Shown: positions 4,301 through 58,420 of the stretch, one piece after another
Position numbering within the stretch: the stretch's first letter is position 1
Layout of the letters: every line of letters begins with the position of its first letter
From: a virus
Taxonomy: Duplodnaviria > Caudoviricetes
Strand: one strand, 5' to 3'
IMG/VR virus record: IMGVR_UViG_3300012016_000004
Location: 1 to 64,000 of that record
Length of the DNA stretch: 64,000 nt
Translations under genes and position numbers: made by a program
Notes under the pieces: generated by a model
What the model was told of the DNA's origin: nothing
What the model saw: the letters and a program-made list of their open reading frames with translations, nothing else
Database searches by the model: none

Positions 4301-7300
4301 ACCATCGGCGCCGGCCGTATTCGGGATGGCAGTGTAGATGGTCTTCTTTCCATCAATCTTGTCAAACACGTCCTTCGGCACTGGGGTCTCCTCCCAGTAG
4401 TACGTGCTGGTGCTTTGGTCGTACCGATACACGGCAGTCGCGCCGGAAGACACACCGCTGACTGTCGAGTTGCCATTGTTCCACCAAATGTCTCCTACGT
4501 GCTGCTCGCGCACATCCGTGGGAGAAGTCCAACCGGAAGCCGGGTCTGTACTCTGAACGAATGTCTCGGCCTTCTTGTCGATGCTGGCCCTTACCGCCGC
4601 AATGTCGGAGGCGTACTCGCCTTCGATGAACGTCTGGACTGCCGACTGGGAAGCGGCATTTGCATAGTAGAACTGGCTGTTCTCAAGCAGAATCTCCTGG
4701 GCATCATAGTAGGTCGTGAAAAGAGAGGCCATATACTCCCGGTCATACCCCTCCGTGAAACCGTCATCATAGAGTTGCATACGGCGCAGGTAGTCTCTGA
4801 GGTTGAAGTACGCTGCATTGAAGCTATCCAAGCCGGTGTACTTGAACATAAGATTGTCCTGCCCTTCATTGAACTTCAGAATGTTCTGAGCGAATGACAG
4901 AGCGACCTGCTTTCCGGTTGCGTATCCGCTACGCTCCACAATGTCGAGAGTGCTGATATACGAGCCGTTGGCGCCCATATCATCCAGCGAAGGAAGGCCG
5001 TTCACGTTCTCCCACAGAGTACGGATATACGCCTTCTCCGTGGCATCGAAGACCTTGTCTGAATTCATCTTCTCCAGTACGGACTGGGTGGAGACCATCT
5101 GCGCCTCGAGAGCAGCGATGGCGTTCTCCATACCTTCCACGTCGAACTCTGATGCATCATTCAGAATGAGGATGCGCTGGGAATCCAGCAGTGTCGTGCC
5201 GTCTGTATCGTAGAGACGGAAGTCAATGTACTCCATTCCGCTGTTGATGGAAATCTGGCCGGAATAGGCCGTCTCAGCAGCCCCATCGATGGAATACTTC
5301 AGAACCTTCTCAGTTGTCTCGGCAGCTGCCTGGTTACCTACGATCTTGTACTTCTTGCAGGTAATAGTGGACGGAGTGATGGTGCCGCCCCACGTGCGCT
5401 TCACAACTGACACGGAAGGCTGAACCATATACAGAACGGCATCCTCACCCTTGATGAGACTCCAGTTATAATCGGACGGCGTTTGGCTGTCCTGCTCGTT
5501 CTCATCTACGTACTGACCGATGTAAGACTTGCCCTGGGAAACAGAGGTCGAGAAGTCCTCCGTACCATCCTGCGAGTTGGCATATGCTATATGCAGGTAG
5601 TACGTTGTTCCGTCCTCACCATCCTGGCCAGGAATACCTTGGTCACCATCTTCGCCCTTGAAGCGGCTCCAGGTGTAATCTGACGGGACTAACGAATCGA
5701 CCGGGTTGTAGTCCACATACGTTCCGATGTAGTCGGAAGGAGTTTCCGTCATCTGCTCGTCGGTAGGATTGGCAACCGGGCTGTACTTCACGTGGAAATA
5801 GGTCGTGCGTCCATCTTGACCGGCAGGGCCTTGAATACCCTGCTCACCCTTCGCACCGGTTATGCAGCAAGGGTCTGAGTAGTCCTCATCCCCGTCAGTG
5901 TACGTTGTGTGGGTGCGAGACCACATATACTTACCATTCACCCACGCCGGAGCCGTGGTGCTCCACTGGCCACCAATCAGCTGAGAAGACGATTCAGAAA
6001 GGTAGTATTCGACATCTACGCCGGCAATGCCGACACCATCATCGCCAGTAGAGCCCTTACCGCCGGTAACACATACCGGGTCGGTAGTGACAGAACTGGA
6101 GTCAGTGTACGTGATGACAGAGCGAGTCCAAATGTACTTGCCGTCCACCCACGTAGGAACAGTCGTTCCCCAGGAGCCTCCGCCAAGAGAGGTCGGTGAT
6201 GTGGACAAGTAGTATTCCTCCTCGATGGACTGGACACCCACGCCGGAGCCGCCGCCACGAACCTTGATGATGTTCATCGTGGTCTTTAACGTGGGGCAAT
6301 CTGTCTTTGTTGCGGTCACTTCTACTGTCGCATTGTCGGCTGTCAGACCAGTGACAGTGATGACGCCGTTGGCTACGGTGGCCGTACACCCGGTGCAGTT
6401 GAGCGAGAATGCCCATCCGCTTTGGAGCGAACCGCCATAGAAGACCTGGATAGCCGATGTGGGCAGGGCGCCAATCACCGTACCATCATAACGGCAAGCT
6501 ACACCCGCGTTCTCATTTGCAAGCAGGATGTTGTACGGAGTACGATTCTGAATCTCTGCGATGAGAGACGGATATTCAGTGAACTGAGCTAAGCCGGACG
6601 ATCCGGCGCCAATGACCACCTTACCCTTGATATGCACTCCATTCTCATCGAACTTGATGAACTGGGAGCCGTTTGGCAGTGACATATTCAGCTCGCCAGT
6701 CTGCAGGTCGAAGTAGTTTATGCCGTCGGATGCTACGATGCGGTCTGTCGTGATGCGCCCTGGCAGAACCTCCGTGTAGCCGTAGGTCTGAGCGAACGAG
6801 CGCGTTCCTTCAAACTCGCTATTGAGGATGCCCAGCAGCAGATGATAGTAGCCTGCAACCGACTCCATACCGATGGCCGTCTCCGACAGAATGAACTGGC
6901 CGGTGGTGCTGCTCTTACCGACCTTCGCGTACACATAATACTTCTTGTCAGTGTCGTTCAGATACTCGCTCACAAAGGCCGGGATGTCCCAGAAATGATA
7001 CTCTGCGGTATCGTGCTGGCTGCTCAACGTGGCAATCCCGATGGTCATGTGCTGGAGTATGCTTGCTCCGGAGGTCAGACCACCGGTGATGGCCAGCCGC
7101 TTGCTCACAGAATCGAATAGGATAGTGAAGTCGCTGTCCACGGTTATAGGCGACACCTTCGATGTGACAAAGCGGAACTGGAGACTTTCGTCCCCCGCGA
7201 TGAGCTGCATCGTCTGCACTGAAATCGGATTGATGGCCTCCGAGTAGTTCTCAATGGCCGCGGCCAGCATCTCCGCTGTCTCCTGGAGGTCACGCCAACG

Positions 7301-8857: not shown

Positions 8858-9796
8858 TTACTCTCCTTCGTAGAAACAAAGTGTGACGGTGAACTGACAC
8901 CAGATTTGGTTGTCGCCAAGCTTTACAAACTCTCCGAGGCTTTGGCTCTGATAGTAGCATTTGTAGGTCTTCCCCTTCCAGGTCAGAACACGGTTGCCGT
9001 TGGATGCGAATACGCCCAGCAAGCGCAGGTACTCCTTCCAGAATAGACTGGGATTAACCGCCCGCATGAGAAGCGGAATAGAGACCGTTTTAGCCCCCTT
9101 TACGGCGGTGTTGTCCGGGTATAGCTGGCCTTTCATCCCAGTGGCCTTAATGATGAGATTGTCCTTGAGCGGAGCAGCCTTCGTAATCTCATTGTCTGTC
9201 CCATCCAAAACATAGCAGCCGAAGTCTCCGAAGTCCTCGCCGTCCAGCAGGAGGCCGGTCTTCTTCTTGCTGATGACAGCATGGCTCTCCTGGCCGTCGT
9301 CATAATCCGTGAACACAAGCAGGTCTTTGTTGAAGACCAACCTGCTTCCGTTGCGCCGGAAAGTCAGATAGGCCGGAGTGCCAACATACGGCTCCATCTC
9401 ATCGAGGAAGTCAAAGTCGAAAGCGAACTCCAACGTGAAGCATTCCAGAGGAGCAATCTTATCACGAGACACGAGTGACTTGTATCTCAGTGGCATGGTT
9501 ACGCCAATCTCCTTGAAATTGAACACATGGTAGCTCTCGCTCTGGAGCATGGCGATGAAGGCATCAGTGCCGGTCGGTGCCGTCCTGCAGAAGAAGTCCA
9601 CTCTGATGCTATCCTTCGGCTCCAAACTAACCGAAAGGAGGTCCGGCTCTATGCCAGGCTCCTCCGGCCATTCGATATACTGCGGTGTCTTGAGTCTCGG
9701 CCATACGACAACACCGTCAAAGCCACCTTCTGCTATTGCGATTCCGTAATTGACGAGGGCATCATTGCCATCGATTAACAGCCTTCCGGTTCTCAT
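8858..9796 (-). CDS. Distal tail (Dit-like) protein
   Basis: 312 aa between tape measure and tail hub; two similar halves (LLIDGND.../LLLDGED...). Confidence 0.6.
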   Translation of the reverse strand: MRTGRLLIDGNDALVNYGIAIAEGGFDGVVVWPRLKTPQYIEWPEEPGIEPDLLSVSLEPKDSIRVDFFCRTAPTGTDAFIAMLQSESYHVFNFKEIGVTMPLRYKSLVSRDKIAPLECFTLEFAFDFDFLDEMEPYVGTPAYLTFRRNGSRLVFNKDLLVFTDYDDGQESHAVISKKKTGLLLDGEDFGDFGCYVLDGTDNEITKAAPLKDNLIIKATGMKGQLYPDNTAVKGAKTVSIPLLMRAVNPSLFWKEYLRLLGVFASNGNRVLTWKGKTYKCYYQSQSLGEFVKLGDNQIWCQFTVTLCFYEGE

Positions 9797-9807
9797 CTCC
9801 AGTCCTC

Positions 9808-12800
9808 CTATCGTTTGATGGTTACACCCTCTTGCTTCATCCGGCTGATGTCGCTACCGATGGAGTCGAGTCCATCGATGATGTCTCCGGCCTTCTCGTT
9901 CAAAGCCTCGGTATCCTTATGGATGCCCATCACATGCTTGAGGATTGAGCCGGTCATGCCAATCAGCGCAGAGTGAAGCTCGCGCATAGTACGGACATCC
10001 TGCTTCATCTCGTAGGTGTGTCCTTGGATGGTTGTCAGCCTGGCGTTCTGCTCATCTACGGAATCCTGCGATGCCGTGATGCCACTGTTGGTGGCGCCGG
10101 TCCTCGTAGTGTCTTCCTCGTTCATCTGGAGATTGAGTCCACGGAGGAACTGCGTGATGGCCGGGGCTTCCGAGTTGGCCTTATCCAGCAAGCTGTTGTA
10201 GAACTCAATGGCACCAGCGGCATCGTTCGCAAGGAGCATGTTCTTGATTTTCTCCTGGGCGTCCTTGTTGAACACATCTTCCATCAGCATGCTGGTCACA
10301 ACCGACTTGGCCATCTGCTTACCAAAGTCTTTGGCGAGGTCAGTCAAGTCTGCCAAAGCATCCCCGCTTTCGAGGAAGGCATCAACCATCGAGCTGGCCA
10401 CATTCTCCGCGACGCCATTGAACAAGTCGGAGAGGTACTGCGACATACCGTCCATAGCTTCCTCGTATCGCTCCCACTCGGACAAGATGGAATCTACCGT
10501 ATGCTTGGTCTGGTCATCCAGGTAGTCTCCGTACTGGTCATACCATGCCTTGAGCTTGTCCCCGTTCAGCTTGCCGTTCTCATCGTAGAAGTCTGCAAGG
10601 TCAGCAGTGACAATGTTCTTGGATGAGCCCCAGAACTTCTGCCAGCCACTACGCATATCGGCCACCAGTTGACCGGATACCTTGCCAACACCTTCGACCA
10701 CGCCCTTGAGGGCCATGAGGCCACCGCTGAACGGATCGCCGGTGACACCAAGGCCGGCAGTCATAAGGAGCGCACCCCAGTTCCGGAGTACCTTCTGATT
10801 GACCTTCATGCCTTTCTCCAGCTCATCGAGATTGTTGCTGGCCTCCTGCAGCTGCTTATTGAATGCGATGAACTGGCCGTAGCCGTCCTCGCCGAAGGCG
10901 TTCTTGAGTTTATCCAACCTCGCTGCATCATTCAGCTCCTCCAGGGCAATCTTGTATTTGCGGGCCGCTTCCGTAGCACGTTCCGTTGCTTCGTTGTTGG
11001 CCTTGATGATGGAGAAAATCGCCGTGACCACCTTGATAGCAGCCTTGATGATGAGCAGGATGACAGAGGCAGATTCTGCAGCACTGATGGCCTGGGCCGT
11101 CGCTTCGCTGGCCTGCTCTACTCCTTCTGACACTCCTTCTACGGTGTCCTGGAGACCACCAACAATATCCTCGCCCTCCTTGACGAAGATTTCAGTAATC
11201 TCCATTGCGGTGTCACCCACCTCCTCGAACAAGTCAATAGCATCGCCCAGAACCTTGGCAACATCATCATCGAATATGCCTACCAGCTCTACGGCACCAC
11301 CTGCAACCGTACTGATTGTGCCGCGAGCCTTGTTTAGCGCGGAGATGAATTTCATCGAGGAGCTGACAACCTTACCCTGGGCGTTGTTGAGCTTCGCGGT
11401 GCTCTTGGTGAGCTTGTCTTGGGCACCACCCAACTCCATCTGCGCAGACTTCAACTGCTCGTCATATTCCTCTTGGGTAAGAATGCCATCGTTGAGCATG
11501 CTGTCCAACGTGGACTTCTGAATAGCATAGTTGGCGTCAGCAAGAACCATCTCTTGCTGAGCCTTCTTGTATTCCTCCAGGGCAGCAACAGTCTCGTCTT
11601 TAGCGGCTGCTACCTCCTGCATGGAGATGCGCATGGCCGCGAAAGGATTGCGATTGGACAGTTCATCGGAGATGGAGGCGATGGCCTTTTCCATCTCGCT
11701 GATGTCCTTCACATCCATCGACCCTTTGTTCGAGGAGAGGAGAGCCCTCGCTTTTGCAAGGCTTTCAGTGAGAACCCGCGTGGACTGCTCGCCGATGTTA
11801 CCGAACAAGGCAGACCAGTTGATGCTGGACTGCATTCCTTTGAGCTTGACTCCGCTCAACTCCTCGTCCCTCTGTTTGGCCAGAGACTTCTTCTCCCACT
11901 CGTTATTGGACTTGGCAATCAGAGCATTGTACTTCTCTGTGATGGCCAGCTCCTGCTCCTTGATGTTTCCATACTCAGCAAGGTATTGCAAGCGGTGGTC
12001 ATTGAGGGCAAACAGTGCATCGTCCCTCTGCTTGGCCAGCATCTTCTTCTTATACTCGTCATCCTCCTTCTCGATGGCGGCATTGTAGCTCGCTTCGATA
12101 GCCTGCTCCTGCTCCTTGTAGTCACCATAGGTCATCAGATAGTTCCACTCGCTCTGGAGCTTCTCATCGAGGACCTCCTTGGTCTTTTTAGCGGCAATCT
12201 TCTCGGTGTCATCAATGCGCTTCTGGAACTGGGCAAGGGTAGTCTGATCTATCTTGTTTCCGGACTTCCTTCCAGCTTCTTCCAGCTTCTTTTGCTCATC
12301 CTTAATAGCAGCGATAGATTGGAGCTTTTCATTTTCAATCTCGGCCAGGCGCTTTTCGTAGCCATCCTCCATGGCCTCAATCTCCGTATTGGCAACAGAC
12401 ATCCACATATCGCGCACGGCCTGCTTGAATGCGTCGCCATATCGCTTGATTTCTTTCTTCTCCGCGTCTGTAAGAATCTTCTTCGGAGTAGTTGTCGTTG
12501 TCGTATTATCGTCTTTCTTATTGAAGCCGGGAGGAGGCATCGGACCAATGAAGTCATTCTCTGTCCTGGTACGTTCGCCAAAACGCCTATCTGCTTCGGC
12601 CATTACATCAGTAAGAGTCTGAGCAGCGCTCGCAGCGCGAGAGAGCTGCATCTGCATGGCGTTGGTCGTGTATGAATAACTCTGCGCGGCCGTACCCTGG
12701 ACATAGGAGACTGTCTTATCGAAGGAGTCAACGACAGACTTCAATTCATCGCTCATCTCCTGCTTTCCCTCAAGCACTGGCACAATCTTCCAGAAGTATG

Positions 12801-14607
12801 TCTCGGCAAGGCTTACGCCATCGCTGCCCTTCTGGTCGCCGAATTTCTCCTTGAGTAGTTTATAGACCTCCTCGCGAACATCAGCTATCGTCTTCCCATA
12901 ATCATCGGCAGCGGAAGCGGTGAAGCTCTCAAAGGCTCTGGCTTTTGCTGCTTTCGATGCCTCCTCCGTAATGGTCTTGTATGCAAGAGCAATATCATCA
13001 AGCGCGGTCTTCTCGTCACCAAGCTTAGTGAGATACTGACCGTACTTGGACATGATTTCCTGCTTTGCTCTATCGTACTCCTCCGTCCCTTCCCTTGCAG
13101 CCTTGAGCTTTGCGAACAGAGTGTCGATTTTCGCCGTTTCAGCGATGATTCCGGCAGTGGCATCCTTGTCTGCCTTATCGAGTTTCTTCATCGCTTTCTC
13201 GGCGTCAGAAGTGGCAGAGACCATCTTGTATATGCCGAAGGCAAGACCAGCCACGGCAGCAGCAGCAAGAGCATACGGATTCTTGAGGATGGTCTTATTC
13301 AAAGCCTTCTGCGCCTTATCAGCAGCAGTCAAAGCTGCGAAGTGAGCAATCTCGGCCCTGGTCCAACCCTTGGTGGCCATAGCAGCAGCGGCCTTCAATG
13401 CGTTAATAGTGATGAGAGCTGCCTTGTATGCACCGAATGTAGCTATCAGTTCCACAATCAGCCGACCGAACTCATCGGCGTTGTCCGTGACCTTGTTGAT
13501 GCCATCGGCAAGGGCTTCTATGGCATTGGCCATCGGGCCGTTGCTGTCCTGGAACTTCAACATGAGACCTTCCCATGCAGACTGGAGCTTCTTTGTGGCA
13601 CCAATGAGGTTCTCGGTCATCGTGCCGTACATCTGCTCCAGTGTACCATCTACACTGCCGAGAGCCTGGCGAAGTTCATCAGCCGATGCCGCTCCAGTGA
13701 TGAGGGCGTTAAATGCAGAGACGGAACGTTTGTCCGTCATCTCCAAAGTCTCGCTCAGGTCAATTCCACGAGCATTGCATTCCTTCAACGAATCGATAAT
13801 CTCCGGGAATGTACGAGCTGTATGACCAAGGCCCTTTGCAAGCTTTCCGTTTGCATCCGCAAGGTTGAGCAGGATGTTTCTCGTGGCCGTTGCTGCGGAA
13901 GAAGCATCAAAGCCAGCGTTGGACAAGGCGCCGAGCAGGGTCACGGTGTCTTCTACCGTGAGACCAAAGGTGTGAGCGATAGGCGCTACGATAGAGATGG
14001 AGGTCTCCAGCTTACTGAAATCCAGTGCTGACTTGGTTGTCGCAGCAGCCATTACATCCAGCAGATGAGTGGAATCCTTGGCTTCAAGGCCAAAGCCTCG
14101 CAGGGCTGCGCCAGCGAAATTAGCCGCCCTTCCAAGGTCGGCATTCACGGCAGCAGCGAACTGCAAAACTGTGCCCTGCATTTCCTTAATCTGTGTCTTT
14201 GTGAAGCCAAGGCGAGCGAGGGCCAGCTGGAGCTCAGTGACCTCCGAAGCAGTGAACTCAGTAACACGGCCAAGGTCTTCCGCAGCCTTCGACATGTCTT
14301 TGATGTCACGGATAGATGAGCCGAGGACAGAGGCAAGTTCTGCATTCTTCCTTTCGAAGTTCGCATTCAGCTCAACGGCGCTCTTACCGACACGTGTTAC
14401 CGCGCTGATGGCTGCTGCAACCGACAGATACCTTGCTGCAAGTGTACCGAGAGAGTCTCCGAGCTTGCTCGATGACTTATCCAGAGAATCGCCGAAATTC
14501 TTGACCTTCCTTTCAGCCTGGTCAAGTCGCTTTTCGAGTTTTGCAACCCCCCTATCAACCGGGGCGTCATCGACTCCCATTACTATTTTCAGTTTGCCAT
14601 CATCCAT
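9808..14607 (-). CDS. Tail tape measure protein
   Basis: 1599 aa, Ala/Lys/Glu-rich helical; N-terminal TP901-like region (GRVTEFTASEVTELQLALARLGF...GFDASSAATATRNIL). Confidence 0.93.
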   Translation of the reverse strand: MDDGKLKIVMGVDDAPVDRGVAKLEKRLDQAERKVKNFGDSLDKSSSKLGDSLGTLAARYLSVAAAISAVTRVGKSAVELNANFERKNAELASVLGSSIRDIKDMSKAAEDLGRVTEFTASEVTELQLALARLGFTKTQIKEMQGTVLQFAAAVNADLGRAANFAGAALRGFGLEAKDSTHLLDVMAAATTKSALDFSKLETSISIVAPIAHTFGLTVEDTVTLLGALSNAGFDASSAATATRNILLNLADANGKLAKGLGHTARTFPEIIDSLKECNARGIDLSETLEMTDKRSVSAFNALITGAASADELRQALGSVDGTLEQMYGTMTENLIGATKKLQSAWEGLMLKFQDSNGPMANAIEALADGINKVTDNADEFGRLIVELIATFGAYKAALITINALKAAAAMATKGWTRAEIAHFAALTAADKAQKALNKTILKNPYALAAAAVAGLAFGIYKMVSATSDAEKAMKKLDKADKDATAGIIAETAKIDTLFAKLKAAREGTEEYDRAKQEIMSKYGQYLTKLGDEKTALDDIALAYKTITEEASKAAKARAFESFTASAADDYGKTIADVREEVYKLLKEKFGDQKGSDGVSLAETYFWKIVPVLEGKQEMSDELKSVVDSFDKTVSYVQGTAAQSYSYTTNAMQMQLSRAASAAQTLTDVMAEADRRFGERTRTENDFIGPMPPPGFNKKDDNTTTTTTPKKILTDAEKKEIKRYGDAFKQAVRDMWMSVANTEIEAMEDGYEKRLAEIENEKLQSIAAIKDEQKKLEEAGRKSGNKIDQTTLAQFQKRIDDTEKIAAKKTKEVLDEKLQSEWNYLMTYGDYKEQEQAIEASYNAAIEKEDDEYKKKMLAKQRDDALFALNDHRLQYLAEYGNIKEQELAITEKYNALIAKSNNEWEKKSLAKQRDEELSGVKLKGMQSSINWSALFGNIGEQSTRVLTESLAKARALLSSNKGSMDVKDISEMEKAIASISDELSNRNPFAAMRISMQEVAAAKDETVAALEEYKKAQQEMVLADANYAIQKSTLDSMLNDGILTQEEYDEQLKSAQMELGGAQDKLTKSTAKLNNAQGKVVSSSMKFISALNKARGTISTVAGGAVELVGIFDDDVAKVLGDAIDLFEEVGDTAMEITEIFVKEGEDIVGGLQDTVEGVSEGVEQASEATAQAISAAESASVILLIIKAAIKVVTAIFSIIKANNEATERATEAARKYKIALEELNDAARLDKLKNAFGEDGYGQFIAFNKQLQEASNNLDELEKGMKVNQKVLRNWGALLMTAGLGVTGDPFSGGLMALKGVVEGVGKVSGQLVADMRSGWQKFWGSSKNIVTADLADFYDENGKLNGDKLKAWYDQYGDYLDDQTKHTVDSILSEWERYEEAMDGMSQYLSDLFNGVAENVASSMVDAFLESGDALADLTDLAKDFGKQMAKSVVTSMLMEDVFNKDAQEKIKNMLLANDAAGAIEFYNSLLDKANSEAPAITQFLRGLNLQMNEEDTTRTGATNSGITASQDSVDEQNARLTTIQGHTYEMKQDVRTMRELHSALIGMTGSILKHVMGIHKDTEALNEKAGDIIDGLDSIGSDISRMKQEGVTIKR

Positions 14608-14899
14608 AGGTCTCGCTGAATGCTTTAATCAGTTCAATGTTATTCGGGTCGCCGGCGTCGAACCGCTCATACCCATCGTCATTCTTATCATCGTCCAAGT
14701 CGTAGCTTGGTAGCACCGCGCTGTACATCATCAGATTGTGATAGCTGAGCTTGTAAATCACGTATTCGAACGAGAGTCCGTAAGCCTTCGCTATCCCTCC
14801 GACTACTGACCAGATGCTGTCGTTTTCGTAGTCTCGCCCACTTCCCTTTCGCTTCCTACGAGATTTACCGTGCGGAGGAAAGTGGTAAGCGCGAAAAAA
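14600..14899 (-). CDS. Tail assembly chaperone C-terminal extension (probable -1 frameshift product)
   Basis: The -1 frame is open from the T TTT TTC heptamer (14899-14893) to TGA at 14602-14600, which overlaps the TMP start. Encodes NDSIWSVVGGIAKAYGLSFEYVIYKLSYHNLMMYSAVLPSY. Confidence 0.65.
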   Translation of the reverse strand, partial: FFRAYHFPPHGKSRRKRKGSGRDYENDSIWSVVGGIAKAYGLSFEYVIYKLSYHNLMMYSAVLPSYDLDDDKNDDGYERFDAGDPNNIELIKAFSETYG

Positions 14900-15288
14900 T
14901 CCTCAAGCTCCGAATTGGATAGGATGGTTGTCACTGCATCATATATCTGCGTGGGAGAGAGCTGCAGCAGGAGGTAGTTCTCCAGCTTGATTACACTTTT
15001 GCGAAGGAAAAACGGCTTCCAACGGAATGGATTGCGGATAGCATCGGCGCCATAAAGAAGGATGGCCAGGATTCTCGCCACTTCACGTCCGCGAGTGCAT
15101 CCTGCCAGTATTTCCGGGATTTTCTTCTCCGGGGAGAAAGACGGCATGGCAACGATATATTCTGCCACCATAGTCAGTGTGCCGAGTGTGACTCGCGGAA
15201 CAACGAATTTCCGCTTGCCGACTATTACCGTCATCGGCGATTGAAGTAAGGCGTCAGCCACCTTTCCTTCGATGTTCTTCTTGCCCAT
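14803..15288 (-). CDS. Tail assembly chaperone
   Basis: Between tail tube and TMP; probable start MGKKNIE at 15288; ends TTASGQ. Confidence 0.7.
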   Translation of the reverse strand: MGKKNIEGKVADALLQSPMTVIVGKRKFVVPRVTLGTLTMVAEYIVAMPSFSPEKKIPEILAGCTRGREVARILAILLYGADAIRNPFRWKPFFLRKSVIKLENYLLLQLSPTQIYDAVTTILSNSELEDFFALTTFLRTVNLVGSEREVGETTKTTASGQ

Positions 15289-15430
15289 AGTCAATGATGC
15301 TTCGTTTGTTAACAATCACGCACTTGCTGTTGTCAAGCCGCACAAGACAGTTGTCACCATTGACCTTTTCTATCGTACCGTGCGCAGTTCCGTTGACCGC
15401 TGGCCACGATATTCTGCGACCTATCTCCAT
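15254..15430 (-). CDS. Small KOW/Tudor-like hypothetical protein
   Basis: 58 aa MEIGRRISWPAVNGTAHGTIEKVNGDNCLVRLD, starting just downstream of the tRNA-like element. Confidence 0.4.
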   Translation of the reverse strand: MEIGRRISWPAVNGTAHGTIEKVNGDNCLVRLDNSKCVIVNKRSIIDYGQEEHRRKGG

Positions 15431-15445
15431 AATCAGCAAGTGTGT

Positions 15446-15549
15446 TGGTCGCTCCGGGAGGACTCGAACCCCCGACCAAATCATCATCGGCGAAGTGGAT
15501 TCCATGGAAAACCGACGATGCAAAGCTCTACCTACTGAGCTACGGAGCG
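15446..15549 (-). ncRNA. tRNA-like RNA with elongated anticodon arm (104 nt)
   Basis: Acceptor CGCTCCG/CGGAGCG plus A-CCA; D-arm GCTC-AGTAGGTA-GAGC; T-arm GGGGG-TTCGAGT-CCTCC; 51 nt between D- and T-arms instead of ~23. Confidence 0.7.
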
Positions 15550-15597
15550 ATGGGTGCCGGGATTTGAACACCTCCCGGCGTAGGTGCGGTTTGAGGT

Positions 15598-16128
15598 TTA
15601 GAGGTCAACGGCAGTGTCGCCGAAGTCCATACCAACACCCTGGAGAGTGTAGGCATCGCCGGACTGGGCCTTGGTGGCCGTGATGGTGCCCCACTTCACA
15701 ATCTTCCCGCTCTCAGGAGCAAGGGCATTGTGAGTGTAGTTCCAGTTGGAACCATCGGCGGCGTTGAAGGGGTCTTCAACGGACACAGCGGTGCGCTCGA
15801 TGTAGAAGCCAGGGGCGCCGGTCTCCTCCGGAATGAGGGCCACGGCGTACTCGTGCTCTACAGTGCCATCGACATGCGAGATGGGCATATCGCGGTTGGC
15901 GAGCAGACGGATAGCATAGGCCAGCTCATAGGAGCTTTTCTTGTTCTTCCGTACTTCGGTCTCGCCTCCTTCAATCTTGCCCTCCAGCGCATCACCCTTG
16001 GTAGGGGTCAGCTGGGTCGAATCTTCTACGGGAGTGGGGATGATCTTCCACGCAGGGGTGGCCGCATTCAGATCCTTCACGAAAATCCTGGGCTTACCCC
16101 AAGACGGTGCTTTCTTCGTAGTAGGCAT
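15598..16128 (-). CDS. Major tail tube protein
   Basis: 176 aa, SWGKPRIFVKD...TPVEDSTQLTPTKGD...EGG type; position after the neck genes. Confidence 0.7.
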   Translation of the reverse strand: MPTTKKAPSWGKPRIFVKDLNAATPAWKIIPTPVEDSTQLTPTKGDALEGKIEGGETEVRKNKKSSYELAYAIRLLANRDMPISHVDGTVEHEYAVALIPEETGAPGFYIERTAVSVEDPFNAADGSNWNYTHNALAPESGKIVKWGTITATKAQSGDAYTLQGVGMDFGDTAVDL

Positions 16129-16159
16129 AATTCATTGACAGATTAAATGGTTTCACACA

Positions 16160-16570
16160 CTATTCCTCGTCAGCCTCCTGGATGTGTTCGAGGCTAAGCC
16201 GATTGTTGATTACGCGCACATGGCGGTCATTGACCTTGAACACGTGCTGTGACTGGAGACGGATTTTGAATCCATCGAAAACATTGCTTTCGAGGGCTTG
16301 CATGAAGACACGGCACAGAGGACGGAGCCTCGGCTGGTTTTCAATCCATTCGTTTTCGCGCTGGACATCATGCACGAAAACATTGACATTGATTGCGACT
16401 TCCTGGCGCTGCTTGGCATCTCCATCAAGGATGGAAATCTCCACATCCTCAAGCACCGAGTTGTCCGGCCGGTTATCCTTGTAGATTCGGCCAGAAATCT
16501 CCGTATGGAGACCTTTCTCACGCAGAAGTGTGTAGATGGTGTCCTTTATTTCGATGTCAGTCAGTGCCAT
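16160..16570 (-). CDS. Tail terminator-like protein
   Basis: 136 aa, ISGRIYKDNRPDNSVLEDVEI; synteny. Confidence 0.55.
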   Translation of the reverse strand: MALTDIEIKDTIYTLLREKGLHTEISGRIYKDNRPDNSVLEDVEISILDGDAKQRQEVAINVNVFVHDVQRENEWIENQPRLRPLCRVFMQALESNVFDGFKIRLQSQHVFKVNDRHVRVINNRLSLEHIQEADEE

Positions 16571-16928
16571 TGTCGTTCTCGTCAGAATGGATTAAACAAA
16601 CCCACGTTTTAGCATTTAACTGGCCTCTGTGGAAGCCTTTCGCTTCGTACCAGCCAGTGCATTCCCCTTCGGCATTGTAGAGCTTGAGGGTCTGACCATA
16701 GCTGATTTCCGGAATGTCGGTATCCAAGTACACGATGTAGTCGTACACGATGTCCTTACCGACACCTACCGGGACTGTACGTGCTTGGCCGTTCGGTTCA
16801 TACCTGCAAGGGTACTGCTCTGACCATTGCTCTCCACCCTGGATGTAGTCTCCGGTCTCCTCGTTATAGGAGCCGGGGACTACAGTCAGCAGGGAAATGG
16901 AATGCGGTCTGAATCGGACTGGAAGCAT
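16557..16928 (-). CDS. Head-closure/stopper-like protein
   Basis: 123 aa, YNEETGDY...PCRYEPNGQA; synteny. Confidence 0.55.
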   Translation of the reverse strand: MLPVRFRPHSISLLTVVPGSYNEETGDYIQGGEQWSEQYPCRYEPNGQARTVPVGVGKDIVYDYIVYLDTDIPEISYGQTLKLYNAEGECTGWYEAKGFHRGQLNAKTWVCLIHSDENDNGTD

Positions 16929-16948
16929 TGCGAATAGGCTTTCAGAGG

Positions 16949-17275
16949 TTAGTCTTCATCAATAGGCGTAACAGTCGGTATAGCCTCCAGGATAACGGAC
17001 TCCGGCTCAAACTTCGAATAGATACGGTTTGCGATGCCAATGAGCGATTTCCTATCCGTGTAGGAGATACTTACGCCTCCTTCAGACACACTTGTTGGTG
17101 TTGTGATGAAATTAGCAATCATATCAGCTATCGCGAGACGGAAGTTCGGCGTTTTGCCAATCGCTTTCGTGTACTCATCGTTGAGCTTGATACCTCTATC
17201 CTCGGCAATCACTCCCAGTGTTTTTTGGGACACCGGGAATGATACCTTACTTTCGAGTGCAGTCCTTACATCCAT
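16949..17275 (-). CDS. Head-tail connector/adaptor
   Basis: 108 aa following the capsid gene; SVSEGGVSIS motif. Confidence 0.6.
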   Translation of the reverse strand: MDVRTALESKVSFPVSQKTLGVIAEDRGIKLNDEYTKAIGKTPNFRLAIADMIANFITTPTSVSEGGVSISYTDRKSLIGIANRIYSKFEPESVILEAIPTVTPIDED

Positions 17276-19922: not shown

Positions 19923-19960
19923 CAAATATAAGCAAAACCGTTGCGATTTGCAACGGTTTT
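19923..19960 (-). promoter_or_regulatory. Promoter of head/tail operon with palindromic operator
   Basis: TATATTTG -7 box (19930-19923); 11-bp inverted repeat AAAACCGTTGC-N5-GCAACGGTTTT (19934-19960). Confidence 0.65.
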
Positions 19961-39026: not shown

Positions 39027-39097
39027 AGCGGAGAGACCGATTCGAACAGCCGCCTCGATGCAGGAAGCACCGCGCTCTACCACTGAGCTATCTCCGC
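39027..39097 (-). tRNA. tRNA-Gly (TCC), atypical, CCA not encoded
   Basis: GCGGAGA/TCTCCGC acceptor, U73, D-arm GCTC-AGTGGTA-GAGC, anticodon arm CGGTG-CTTCCTG-CATCG, T-arm GGCTG-TTCGAAT-CGGTC. Confidence 0.85.
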
Positions 39098-55538: not shown

Positions 55539-56068
55539 AGGATTATTATCTCATTCTCATGCCGGCGTGAGATGTAGGCAAAGACCTCATCCCGCTGCAC
55601 AAGGCGTTCTTTCACTTTACGACCATGTGCCTTGGCATAGGCAAGGCACCATTCGAAATCAGTAGTCCACGATATGCCTGGGTCTGGTATTCTGTCATAG
55701 GCCCGCCAGACTTTCAGAGGGAAAGTCATCTCCTCCAAAGTCTTCGCATCTTCAACGGTCATAAACCAGCCCTTGCATGGCCTTTTTGACTGGAAGAACG
55801 GACGGAACTTATCTGCCAGGTCAGTTGAACCAACTCCCACCCAAACAGTGCGAAGCAGCTCCCAGTAGCGAGGATTAGAGAGGAGCCTGGACTTTCTGAA
55901 CCAAATGTCCAGTGTCTTTTCCTCTGACTGCTCTACATCATACGCATTGACGAGCTGGCGGGCAATCTTTGCATCCATCGCCAGCTGCTTATTCGACAGC
56001 GCCGGGATTCTTCGCGTGAACTCCGTCTGGTCAGTATTCGGCCTGGTATGGTTATAGACGGTTATCAT
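55535..56068 (-). CDS. Hypothetical protein
   Basis: 177 aa; VWRAY...GISWTTD...RHENEIII. Confidence 0.65.
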   Translation of the reverse strand: MITVYNHTRPNTDQTEFTRRIPALSNKQLAMDAKIARQLVNAYDVEQSEEKTLDIWFRKSRLLSNPRYWELLRTVWVGVGSTDLADKFRPFFQSKRPCKGWFMTVEDAKTLEEMTFPLKVWRAYDRIPDPGISWTTDFEWCLAYAKAHGRKVKERLVQRDEVFAYISRRHENEIIIL

Positions 56069-56547
56069 CTTCCGGAACTCCCATAACCGTTGGCGCCGCG
56101 CTCCGTGGAATCCAGCTCATCAACTTCGATGAACTCGATGTCGCACGTAAAGCCGATCTTGATTTGTCCGATTCTATCTCCGACGTGATACCTGGGCATG
56201 TTGGGCATCACGTGATAGAACACCGCGCTTATCTCGCCGGTATAGCCTTCATCTATTGTTCCAGTGCAGTTCGACAGAACCATACCTGTCTTCCATACTG
56301 ATGAGCGAGGACGAAGGTCGATTGATAACCTTCCCTGGTTTACGTACACCCTATGAGATTTCGTCTCATAAGCGATGGAAGTCAGTTGCTCCTTGTCAAT
56401 CTGCAGAGCGAAACCAAGCCCATAGCGCCAAACATTCGGAGCTATTTCCTCCTCAGTGACGGCAGTCACATCATAACAGAAATCTGTCTTATTTGCTTTT
56501 GTAGGGATGACTGCATCCGGGTGCAGTCTCTTAAATTTAAGTATCAT
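56065..56547 (-). CDS. dut: dUTPase (trimeric)
   Basis: RPRSS, GTIDEGYTGEI, RIGQI, RGANGYGSSG motifs. Confidence 0.92.
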   Translation of the reverse strand: MILKFKRLHPDAVIPTKANKTDFCYDVTAVTEEEIAPNVWRYGLGFALQIDKEQLTSIAYETKSHRVYVNQGRLSIDLRPRSSVWKTGMVLSNCTGTIDEGYTGEISAVFYHVMPNMPRYHVGDRIGQIKIGFTCDIEFIEVDELDSTERGANGYGSSGR

Positions 56548-57743
56548 CTTTTATCTTCTGCTTTGAAGTTATACACTGGCTTGATGATATTCACGACGTC
56601 AACAGTCGGAGCAATACACTCGATGATTTCCTCCATCGGCTTGTAGGCCATCGGAGACTCGTCGATAGTTCCTTTGCCGACCGTGGTCGAAAAGATTCCG
56701 GCCATGGTCCGCTTGAAATCATCAACGGACAGAGACTCCTTTGCTTTAGCGCGTGACATGAGACGGCCGGCGCCATGCGGAGCAGAGTAGTTCCAGTCCG
56801 GATTGCCCTTGCCCACACAAATCAGCGAGCCGTCTCGCATGTTCATCGGGATGATGAGCTTCTCGTCAGCGTCAGCCCGGACCGCGCCTTTGCGGAGAAT
56901 CATGGCCTTCGTGTCAATGTAGTTGTGAATCGTCTCGAAGTACAGCTTCGGATTCCAGTGCATACCGGCAAAGATGAATCCGGCCATCGTCATTCGGTTC
57001 ACAGATGCATACCGCTGAACGATCTCCATGTCGTGGATGTAGTCGGCGAAGTCCTGCCCTTCCAGGTGGGCCAGCTCTTTATTGCATGCAGGTTTCTGGA
57101 GCTTCTTCAACTCAGTCTGGATGTCCTTTTCTCGGCCCTCTGCTTTCAGTTTGCGCACCAGATCATCCTTGACCTTACCAATCTCATTCAGCTTCTTATA
57201 AGCGAGGTCCTGGTAATACTTGCAGACCTGCACTCCGAGGTTTCTTGAGCCGGAATGAATGACAAGGTAATACTTCCCAGTCTTCTCGTCAATATCCAGC
57301 TCTATGAAGTGATTCCCACCACCGAGCGAGCCGAGAGAAAGGGATGCTCTCTCCAAGTCCACATGCTTTGCGCAGCGAAGTAATTCCAGCTGCGGAAACT
57401 TAGCAATCGGGAAGTCATGGACATTGAATCCGGACGGGATACCGGTCTTGATGAGATCGTCCAAGAAGGCCAAATCCGGATGTATTCTTGACCCTAACTC
57501 GGCAACATACATCCCGCATCCGATGTCCACTCCAACAAGGTTCGGCGTGACCTTGCCATGCAGTGTCATCGTGGTGCCAATCGTGCATCCCGCGCCGGCG
57601 TGGGCATCAGGCATGATGCGGATGGTGGATTCTTTGTACGGCTCGTAGTTGGCCAGCGCCTTCACCTGGTCATACGCCTCATATTCGAAGGTCTTGGCAA
57701 ACACCTTTACGACCGACCCATTTTCGCGTTTAATCTCTATCAT
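56544..57743 (-). CDS. rtcB: RtcB RNA ligase
   Basis: MPDAHAG, GVDIGCG, GGGNHF, IHSGSR, HNY, SAPHGAGR, DESPMAYK. Confidence 0.95.
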   Translation of the reverse strand: MIEIKRENGSVVKVFAKTFEYEAYDQVKALANYEPYKESTIRIMPDAHAGAGCTIGTTMTLHGKVTPNLVGVDIGCGMYVAELGSRIHPDLAFLDDLIKTGIPSGFNVHDFPIAKFPQLELLRCAKHVDLERASLSLGSLGGGNHFIELDIDEKTGKYYLVIHSGSRNLGVQVCKYYQDLAYKKLNEIGKVKDDLVRKLKAEGREKDIQTELKKLQKPACNKELAHLEGQDFADYIHDMEIVQRYASVNRMTMAGFIFAGMHWNPKLYFETIHNYIDTKAMILRKGAVRADADEKLIIPMNMRDGSLICVGKGNPDWNYSAPHGAGRLMSRAKAKESLSVDDFKRTMAGIFSTTVGKGTIDESPMAYKPMEEIIECIAPTVDVVNIIKPVYNFKAEDKR

Positions 57744-58420
57744 ACTTCATCAAATAGCGACAGTTCCTTTATTACCTTTCCGGACGGAGTGTGGAACGTC
57801 AATAAACACTCCTCCTCGAATCTTTTCTGCTGGGCCTCGAAATACTTCGGGTCAATCTCGCATCCGTAGAAGTCATAACCCATTTGGTAGGCCACTATCC
57901 TGCTTGAGCCGGAGCCAAGATGGGTGTCGAGTATCTTACCCCCCCCCTTGAAGTAGTTCTCCAGTATCCATCTGTACAGAGACTTTGGTTTCTCATGTGG
58001 ATGGATGCCACTCCGCTTCTCGCACCTGCAGCAGCCATTCCATATCAGCGAGACAATACGTACCGGGATGTTGAATGATGTCCATGCAAGCTCTGCTTCG
58101 GATAGGTGCTGCGTTGGGAAGTCTATCTGCTTGTCCCAAACAATCCAGCTGTTCCTCGCCGGCAAGTGCTCCGTGTAGTAGTTGGCTCCCCAGATAATCT
58201 GATTCTTGCTCACCCGGAACAATTCTTTGAAATACTCCGGGCCTGGTATCGAATCATTCATGTACGTGGAATCTTCACGATAGAACTTGCTATGCTTATC
58301 CTTCCTCCAGTTACGGCCAATGCCGTATGGCGGATCAACGAGCGCGAGGTCGAAATGCTTATCCGGCATCGTTCTCATGTATGCGAGGCAGTCGCAGTTG
58401 TATGTTTCACTTATCGGCAT
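57740..58420 (-). CDS. DNA amino-methyltransferase (beta class)
   Basis: DPPY motif, HPHEKP, ILDTHLGSGS. Confidence 0.9.
   Translation of the reverse strand: MPISETYNCDCLAYMRTMPDKHFDLALVDPPYGIGRNWRKDKHSKFYREDSTYMNDSIPGPEYFKELFRVSKNQIIWGANYYTEHLPARNSWIVWDKQIDFPTQHLSEAELAWTSFNIPVRIVSLIWNGCCRCEKRSGIHPHEKPKSLYRWILENYFKGGGKILDTHLGSGSSRIVAYQMGYDFYGCEIDPKYFEAQQKRFEEECLLTFHTPSGKVIKELSLFDEV

Follow-up and report, generated by a model that had tools for sequence, protein, structure and literature searches.

A tRNA-shaped RNA and pseudoknot behind the tail-tube gene of Bacteroidales phages, best read as a previously undescribed variant of tRNA-like processing signals

Why should a phage carry, within its tail operon, an RNA that has the acceptor end and elbow of a tRNA built around a greatly enlarged anticodon arm? 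We addressed this question for one such RNA in a window of 64,000 nt, the first part of the 72-kb IMG/VR virus record IMGVR_UViG_3300012016_000004, in which nearly all genes lie on the minus strand. A preliminary description had read the stretch at 15446-15549 as a tRNA mimic rather than a decoding tRNA and had offered three roles for it: a decoy for anticodon nucleases or tRNA-sensing defences, an RNase P/Z processing signal in the late transcript, or a substrate for the phage-encoded RNA ligase RtcB. These coordinates were borne out, and we can add the strand: the tRNA-shaped RNA is 104 nt long and lies on the minus strand, with its 5' end at 15549 and a 3' CCA at 15448-15446. It scored 41.9 bits against the Rfam model RF00005 (gathering threshold 29; E-value 1.7e-05 over the 64-kb window), and the acceptor, D and T arms all aligned to the model. 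ARAGORN at default settings made no call for it in the window.

The minimum-energy fold of the element (-40.5 kcal/mol, z -2.4) and the RF00005 alignment together confirmed the 7-bp acceptor stem, the encoded CCA and the canonical D and T arms that had first been noticed. The acceptor stem pairs 15549-15543 with 15456-15450, the D arm at 15540-15525 includes G18 and G19, and the T arm at 15473-15457 consists of a 5-bp stem and the loop UUCGAGU. The 3' end carries a discriminator A at 15449 followed by the CCA, so that ACCA is encoded in full. What sets the element apart is the position of the anticodon arm, which holds 45 nt as opposed to 17 nt in the RF00005 model and thus has the 28 additional nucleotides previously claimed for it. 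The long arm at 15520-15482 is built on an outer helix of 10 bp (RNA positions 30-39 with 59-68, or 15520-15511 with 15491-15482), which contains the 9-bp stem described earlier and extends it by one U-G pair. Unpaired linkers, UUUG and AUUUGGUC, lie on either side of the arm (15524-15521 for the first linker; 15481-15474 for the second together with the variable region), and at the arm base three positions per side do not pair. The arm tip displays CAU, and a three-fold GAU repeat occupies the 3' strand of the arm. The inner hairpin that had been drawn within the outer helix held up less well: since the same two G's are used by both structures, the two cannot both fully form, and the hairpin is energetically marginal and is not conserved in relatives.

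Canonical tRNA genes that are co-transcribed with mRNAs, including a phage tRNA-Met(CAU), share with the element the acceptor, D and T arms and the nucleotides of the tertiary pairs. Unlike them, it does not present a 5-bp anticodon stem whose 7-nt loop carries U33 and a purine at position 37; their place is taken by 45 nt, of which 3 on each side form a non-pairing linker. One could suppose that it is nevertheless a real decoding tRNA whose insert is removed by a hitherto unrecognized splicing route, in which the phage RtcB might do the sealing; the CAU at the arm tip, the presence of RtcB in the genome and the encoded ACCA are all consistent with this. However, an exhaustive single-deletion test of the window and of L009 and L010, the two closest distinct relatives, returned no 5-bp stem with a 7-nt loop that has U33 and a purine at 37; among shuffled cores, by comparison, 7% yielded a solution. 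This upholds the earlier statement that removal of one intron restores no normal tRNA. The non-pairing positions at the arm base also argue against splicing, as does the insert itself, which measures 28 nt in the window, 41 nt in L009 and 12 nt in L010 and differs in sequence among these close relatives. Nor does it appear to belong to a recognizable intron type: Rfam intron families gave no match to the element at E-values up to 10, an insert of 28 nt is far below the size of a group I intron, and bulge-helix-bulge splicing is, to our knowledge, absent from bacterial hosts, here the Bacteroidales. Collectively, the sequence evidence already largely refutes a spliced decoding tRNA, which we regard as extremely unlikely. 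The predicted RNA is instead a tRNA-shaped molecule with no decoding role, neither an ordinary nor a simply intron-bearing tRNA, and in this respect the core of the mimic proposal is supported by the deletion test and by an arm that differs among close relatives while the top half is conserved.

Two further identities were considered and rejected. With introns allowed, ARAGORN proposed a tRNA-Glu with a 7-nt 'intron' and a long variable arm, which we set aside as contrived and implausible, and a tmRNA was dismissed given that neither ARAGORN nor Rfam found one in the window. The phage has a single tRNA of ordinary length, a tRNA-Gly(UCC) at 39027-39097 on the minus strand (Rfam 52.1 bits), whose CCA is not encoded and which is directly followed by a T run. 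Because the CCA and the T run differ between them, the 3' ends of this tRNA and of the tRNA mimic appear to be made differently.

The element occupies a well-defined place in the operon. Upstream of it lies a gene for a 176-aa protein at 15598-16128 on the minus strand (phrog_17745), whose product is predicted to have a tail-tube fold: the best Foldseek matches of its AlphaFold2 model (pLDDT 86.8) in the PDB were all phage or tailocin tail-tube proteins, with E-values of 2e-4 to 1e-2, and a homologue cluster is titled 'Phage tail protein' in Phocaeicola dorei. On the operon strand, the element sits 48 nt past the tube stop codon and 15 nt ahead of the next start codon, which belongs to a small ORF of 58 aa at 15254-15430 (minus strand). 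This ORF is conserved at the protein level in L005, L009 and L010, where it measures 58, 64 and 53 aa, respectively, and it overlaps the start of the following 161-aa gene by 35 nt. Only members of the window's clade have this ORF, which there separates the tRNA-like element from the chaperone-position gene; its match to a Pfam SH3-like domain is sub-threshold (17.7 bits against a cut-off of 27). The 161-aa gene at 14803-15288 and a 53-aa gene at 14600-14761, both also called in relatives, occupy the position of tail-assembly chaperones, and a chaperone role for the former is suggested by position only. They are followed by a tape-measure gene of 1599 aa with a PhageMin_Tail domain at 9808-14607. 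All three lie on the minus strand, and the assignments phrog_12247 and phrog_25685 apply jointly to this region of chaperone-position and tape-measure genes. The original placement between tail tube and chaperone genes is thus correct on the upstream side, but the chaperone-like gene does not adjoin the element, as the 58-codon ORF intervenes.

The element appears to be co-transcribed with these genes in a single long late message, because the region 13946-17049 contains neither a Bacteroidetes -7 promoter motif, on whichever strand, nor a minus-strand site resembling a terminator. The nearest upstream -7 motif on the minus strand is at 19923-19930. A search of the 72-kb record for a reverse transcriptase (RVT_1) gave no match, and the idea that the element primes such an enzyme was rejected on this basis. 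The same absence bears on the idea of a diversity-generating retroelement in this genome.

Relatives were found via the tail-tube protein, and their loci, numbered with the prefix L, were taken from public assemblies. A profile of the tube protein gave at least 354 viral loci, 80 of which were kept, in addition to 36 loci in the genomes of Prevotella, Bacteroides, Parabacteroides, Porphyromonadaceae and other Bacteroidales. Other searches were less productive: an annotated phage collection contained no similar DNA, a single-protein locus search returned zero relatives, two pattern scans found no closer relatives of the window-type element, and a looser pattern for its 3' half matched only an unrelated tRNA-Met and coding sequence. 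The element is retained at the same place in L005-L010. Identity between the window and L009 amounts to 95% in the tRNA top half, 80% in the tube gene DNA and 52% in the arm; for L010 the corresponding values are 81%, 72% and 41%. The outer arm helix is maintained between the window and L009 through compensatory changes. Because the top half is better conserved than the neighbouring coding DNA and the arm less so, these comparisons indicate that the top half is under selection and is not decaying. A non-conserved arm had been named beforehand as the mark of a decaying pseudogene; the arm does vary, yet the outcome as a whole comes out against decay.

To define how far this arrangement extends, we used a strict scan that required a T arm of 5 bp and 7 nt with a 7-bp acceptor stem immediately around it, at most 330 nt past the tube stop codon. 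Such an acceptor and T-arm element was present in at least 42 of 76 distinct loci, compared with 3 of 76 on the reverse strand and 10 of 76 in the 990 nt upstream, which is three times as much DNA. Several further elements, including those of L009 and L010, were seen by eye beyond the strict scan. A relaxed detector of the same two arms gave many false matches in coding DNA and was left out in favour of the strict scan and a hand-curated set. Pairs were counted by script on end-anchored stems, as MAFFT failed to align such heterogeneous elements in register. Across 33 distinct syntenic elements, the acceptor and T stems were 93.7% paired, with every Watson-Crick type occurring at each position, whereas a shifted-partner control gave 43-56%. 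The covariation across relatives that had been suggested as a check is therefore observed for both stems.

The remainder of the element takes markedly different forms from clade to clade. A near-canonical CAU loop is found in L115 (63 bits), L105 (57 bits) and L106, with scores in the range of 57-63 bits. Other elements are 70 nt long, are called 'tRNA-Gly(ACC)' by ARAGORN and could close their loop to a triloop via pairs 32-38 and 33-37; some have a degenerate T loop; the D arm is missing in L011 and L091-L096; L121, at 57 nt, has no anticodon arm at all; and swollen arms characterize the window's clade. Independent lineages drop different middle parts and never the acceptor/T-arm stack, which on present comparisons is the only universal part of the syntenic elements. 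Conservation across the family does not extend to the 3' CCA. The elements of L105, L106 and L115, which lie in Prevotella and Paludibacteraceae prophages, resemble an initiator tRNA-Met in their 1-72 mismatch and CUCAUAA loop, but their anticodon stems do not have the three G-C pairs that mark an initiator.

Arm tips in several clades carry an apical loop with CCA, of the UUCCA, UACCA, AACCA or AUCCA type, on stems that covary. Such tips are found at 15502-15510 in the window and in L009, L102, L103, L016, L067, L108 and L114, a pattern suggesting that in some clades the loop acts in a sequence-specific manner. A second copy or a complement of the arm tip was not found elsewhere in the window. 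Inspection by eye showed no consistent base pairing across clades between the arm tip and the start codon downstream, and this idea was dropped.

Just ahead of the element, the same strand is predicted to fold into an H-type pseudoknot at 15556-15586 (minus strand), for which we considered the fold, the geometry and a shuffle control (shuffle frequency 0.04 in the window, 0.01-0.09 per locus). Stem 2 is a hairpin of 7 bp (15579-15573 with 15562-15556), and stem 1 comprises 4 bp between 15586-15583 and the first four bases of the hairpin loop at 15572-15569. Loops 1, 2 and 3 measure 3, 0 and 6 nt, the last being A-rich, and 6 nt separate the end of the pseudoknot from the tRNA-like 5' end. The same geometry, with a stem 1 of at least 4 Watson-Crick pairs, occurs in 14 of 28 distinct loci; the predicted stem 1 covaries, with at least seven different sequences that include CACC/GGUG, CGCC/GGCG, AGCC/GGCU and ACCC/GGGU. 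A G+C-rich hairpin ends 1-6 nt ahead of the element in 18 of 19 representatives, by a measure that 40% of random positions in the same loci also pass, so that this adjacency counts for little by itself.

In L119 and L126, the pseudoknot-hairpin of the L016 group is followed by a U-run and there is no tRNA-like element, an arrangement predicted to be an ordinary terminator. The terminator and the tRNA-like element may thus be two routes to the same capped 3' end. A clean alternation in which a terminator replaces the element was not found across loci, with a hairpin and U-tract present in 8 of 48 loci that have the tRNA-like element and in 9 of 27 that do not. A read-through or frameshift signal in the pseudoknot was rejected as well, given that its distance to the stop codon ranges from 0 to 11 nt among relatives and that there is no slippery site.

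RNase P measures the stack of acceptor and T arm together with the elbow, and not the anticodon arm (PMC4919913). The parts that the element has kept are those by which tRNA ends are recognized for processing, namely the acceptor/T-arm stack, the elbow of D loop and T loop and the encoded ACCA. Across the family, selection likewise falls on this recognition half: the acceptor and T stems are universal and covary, and the D and anticodon arms have been lost or remodelled by clade. The element combines a non-canonical fold with an intact stack, stands beside protein genes and appears to be embedded in one transcript with them. We therefore favour, with a probability of roughly 0.5, the reading that it serves as a cis-acting processing or 'punctuation' signal in the late polycistronic transcript, cut by host RNase P. 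Taken together with the pseudoknot, it is best read as a phage variant, not described before, of a known type of tRNA-like processing signal; no phage device of this kind came to light in a search of the full-text literature.

On this model, host RNase P would cut between 15550 and 15549, and the head-to-tube message would then end in the pseudoknot and a 6-nt tail, on which 3'-to-5' exonucleases would act poorly. Because this end would resist degradation, the capped head-to-tube message would be long-lived, as would suit a very abundant tube protein. The tRNA-like 3' end would be trimmed to CCA by the host pathway for tRNA 3' ends. The downstream message, with the small ORF at 15254-15430 as its first gene, followed by the chaperone-like genes and the tape measure, would encode low-copy proteins, possess an unprotected 5' end and decay faster. 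A swollen or closed anticodon arm may be tolerated or even favoured, as it would keep a CCA-ended look-alike out of translation. Among the three roles originally proposed, only that of an RNase P/Z signal gains comparative support, from the fixed position of the element, its universal acceptor/T part and the pseudoknot 1-6 nt upstream; the cutting itself we infer from sequence. A minihelix would do for cutting, and the full D arm, intact elbow and long arm seen in this lineage are left unexplained by the processing model. The recurrence of CCA loops at arm tips and the variable 3' CCA likewise weigh against it.

Known systems provide precedents for such a signal. At the t-elements of plant mitochondria, the upstream mRNA owes its 3' end to RNase P and the downstream mRNA its 5' end to RNase Z (Forner et al. 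2007, PMC1920247). Like the phage element, t-elements are non-canonical tRNA-like cloverleaves within longer transcripts beside protein genes, with a conserved T arm. They differ in that they are organellar and have experimentally mapped ends, where those of the phage element are predicted, and in that they have neither a paired upstream pseudoknot nor a fixed gene context across a large family. A second parallel comes from mammals. RNase P cleavage at the 5' side of the MALAT1 mascRNA creates a protected 3' end, and the anticodon arm of mascRNA is aberrant. The 3' module of MALAT1 and MEN-beta consists of a triple helix (ENE) followed by the tRNA-like mascRNA (PMC8457004, PMC4824109). The order of parts is the same as in the phage, with a compact protective structure, a few nucleotides and then a tRNA-like element; however, MALAT1 is a mammalian nuclear lncRNA with a U-A-U triple helix, and the phage module uses an H-type pseudoknot whose third loop is A-rich. 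The Rfam mascRNA model gave 13.6 bits for the element against a threshold of 42.5 and hence no match, and the resemblance is one of analogy, not homology.

The tRNA-like Y RNAs of the YrlA type offer a different comparison, as they also consist of a tRNA-shaped module with a long additional helix attached (Chen et al. 2014, PMC4201824) and often occur in genomes that encode RtcB as well. The two ends of a YrlA RNA lie in its Ro60-binding stem, whereas those of the phage element lie in the acceptor stem. With no TROVE/Ro60 gene in the phage genome and no Rfam Y-RNA match at the element, identity with a Y RNA was rejected.

Against the processing signal we weighed several other explanations, of which two relate to the origin of the element and to the hairpin beside it. 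In its D arm, variable loop and T arm, the element is nearly identical to a canonical phage tRNA-Met(CAU) found in L135, and its frame probably descends from a gene of that type. Such an ancestor is plausible because of this match, the CAU loops of syntenic relatives and the GAU repeat in the arm; the arm may then have expanded from it by insertion or slippage. Taken further, the element could be a functionless remnant whose anticodon arm was wrecked by insertions and slippage, and the near-canonical tRNAs at this site in L115 and L105, the match to L135 and the repeat, such as slippage would leave, would all accord with that view. We consider it very improbable nonetheless, in light of a top half that is more conserved than the flanking coding DNA, acceptor and T stems that covary across clades and independent losses that affect varied middle parts and never the acceptor/T-arm stack. 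A structural roadblock or attenuator that works without cutting is improbable as well; here the pseudoknot and the compact tRNA fold would pause or partly terminate RNA polymerase, or block exonucleases, and in this way set the ratio of upstream to downstream expression. Many relatives have a plain hairpin at the site, with or without a U-tract, and the eight loci with a tRNA-like element that are also U-rich past the hairpin could be understood in this way, but the window hairpin is followed by no U-tract. A roadblock would also have no need of the tRNA-specific features that are conserved and covarying, namely the stack of 7 and 5 bp, the T-loop sequence, G18 and G19 and the partners of the Levitt pair.

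The other explanations attribute a function to the excised RNA. It might be the actual product, a stable CCA-ended decoy, sponge or regulator acting in trans, with the fast-evolving arm as its business end and a defence nuclease, a modification enzyme, the CCA-adding enzyme or RtcB, of host or phage, as candidate partners. This would account for the retention of a full elbow, D arm and ACCA in this lineage, though a minihelix suffices for cutting, and for an arm helix preserved by compensatory changes between the window and L009; the rapid change of the arm could reflect an arms race, and CCA loops recur at arm tips in several clades. The phage also encodes RtcB, at 56544-57743 on the minus strand (Pfam 207 bits). 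This ligase is absent, however, from all five related phage records with a syntenic tRNA-like element, four of which are at least 90% complete, so that the proposed link between element and RtcB is unsupported. The suggestion of a decoy for anticodon nucleases finds no support either, because the anticodon loop, the part that a decoy would present, is the least conserved, and the arm is absent or replaced in relatives. A trans-acting RNA would moreover not require strict synteny behind the tube gene and pseudoknot, and the genome has no Ro60/TROVE gene and the element no match to a Y-RNA, tmRNA or other Rfam family. On balance, we regard a purely trans-acting RNA as unlikely, if still a serious candidate. 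Somewhat more doubtful is a dual role, in which the element would punctuate the late mRNA and also release a stable CCA-ended RNA whose hypervariable arm, often tipped by a loop with CCA, engages a tRNA-binding factor; this partner would come from host or phage, for example from a tRNA-targeting defence system. If the dual role is true, tail operons of Bacteroidales phages would hide a rapidly evolving family of RNAs that mimic tRNAs and serve in counter-defence or regulation. The RtcB gene is itself neighboured by a DNA methylase gene and a dUTPase-like gene (57740-58420 and 56065-56547).

Returning to the processing signal, if RNase P does cut here, the phage element would be the bacterial-virus counterpart of t-elements and of the MALAT1 triple-helix/mascRNA device, and host tRNA-trimming enzymes would split the late message in two, a stable part for the tube and a shorter-lived one for tail proteins of low copy number. 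The module is widespread in phages and prophages of gut Bacteroidales from humans and animals, including Prevotella, Bacteroides, Phocaeicola and Parabacteroides. Such elements are probably mis-annotated as odd tRNAs, the 'tRNA-Gly(ACC)' calls being one example, or missed. The series from near-canonical to closed-loop, arm-less and swollen-arm forms would represent a natural record of a tRNA gene becoming a pure processing signal.

Two minor observations emerged from the same comparisons. In two divergent clades (L016 to L090 groups), a second hairpin with a conserved loop containing GUGAAGAUA lies about 60-110 nt past the tRNA-like element, between it and the next gene (about 2200-2235 in L016); this hairpin is absent from the window's clade. 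A pattern for tRNAs with a long middle also matched two IMG/VR contigs and a giant-virus MAG, where about 20 extra nucleotides lie in the anticodon region. These long-middle tRNA-like genes, at 6430-6506 (minus strand) in L003, 2115-2191 (plus strand) in L004 and 9754-9829 (plus strand) in L002, are unrelated to this phage family.
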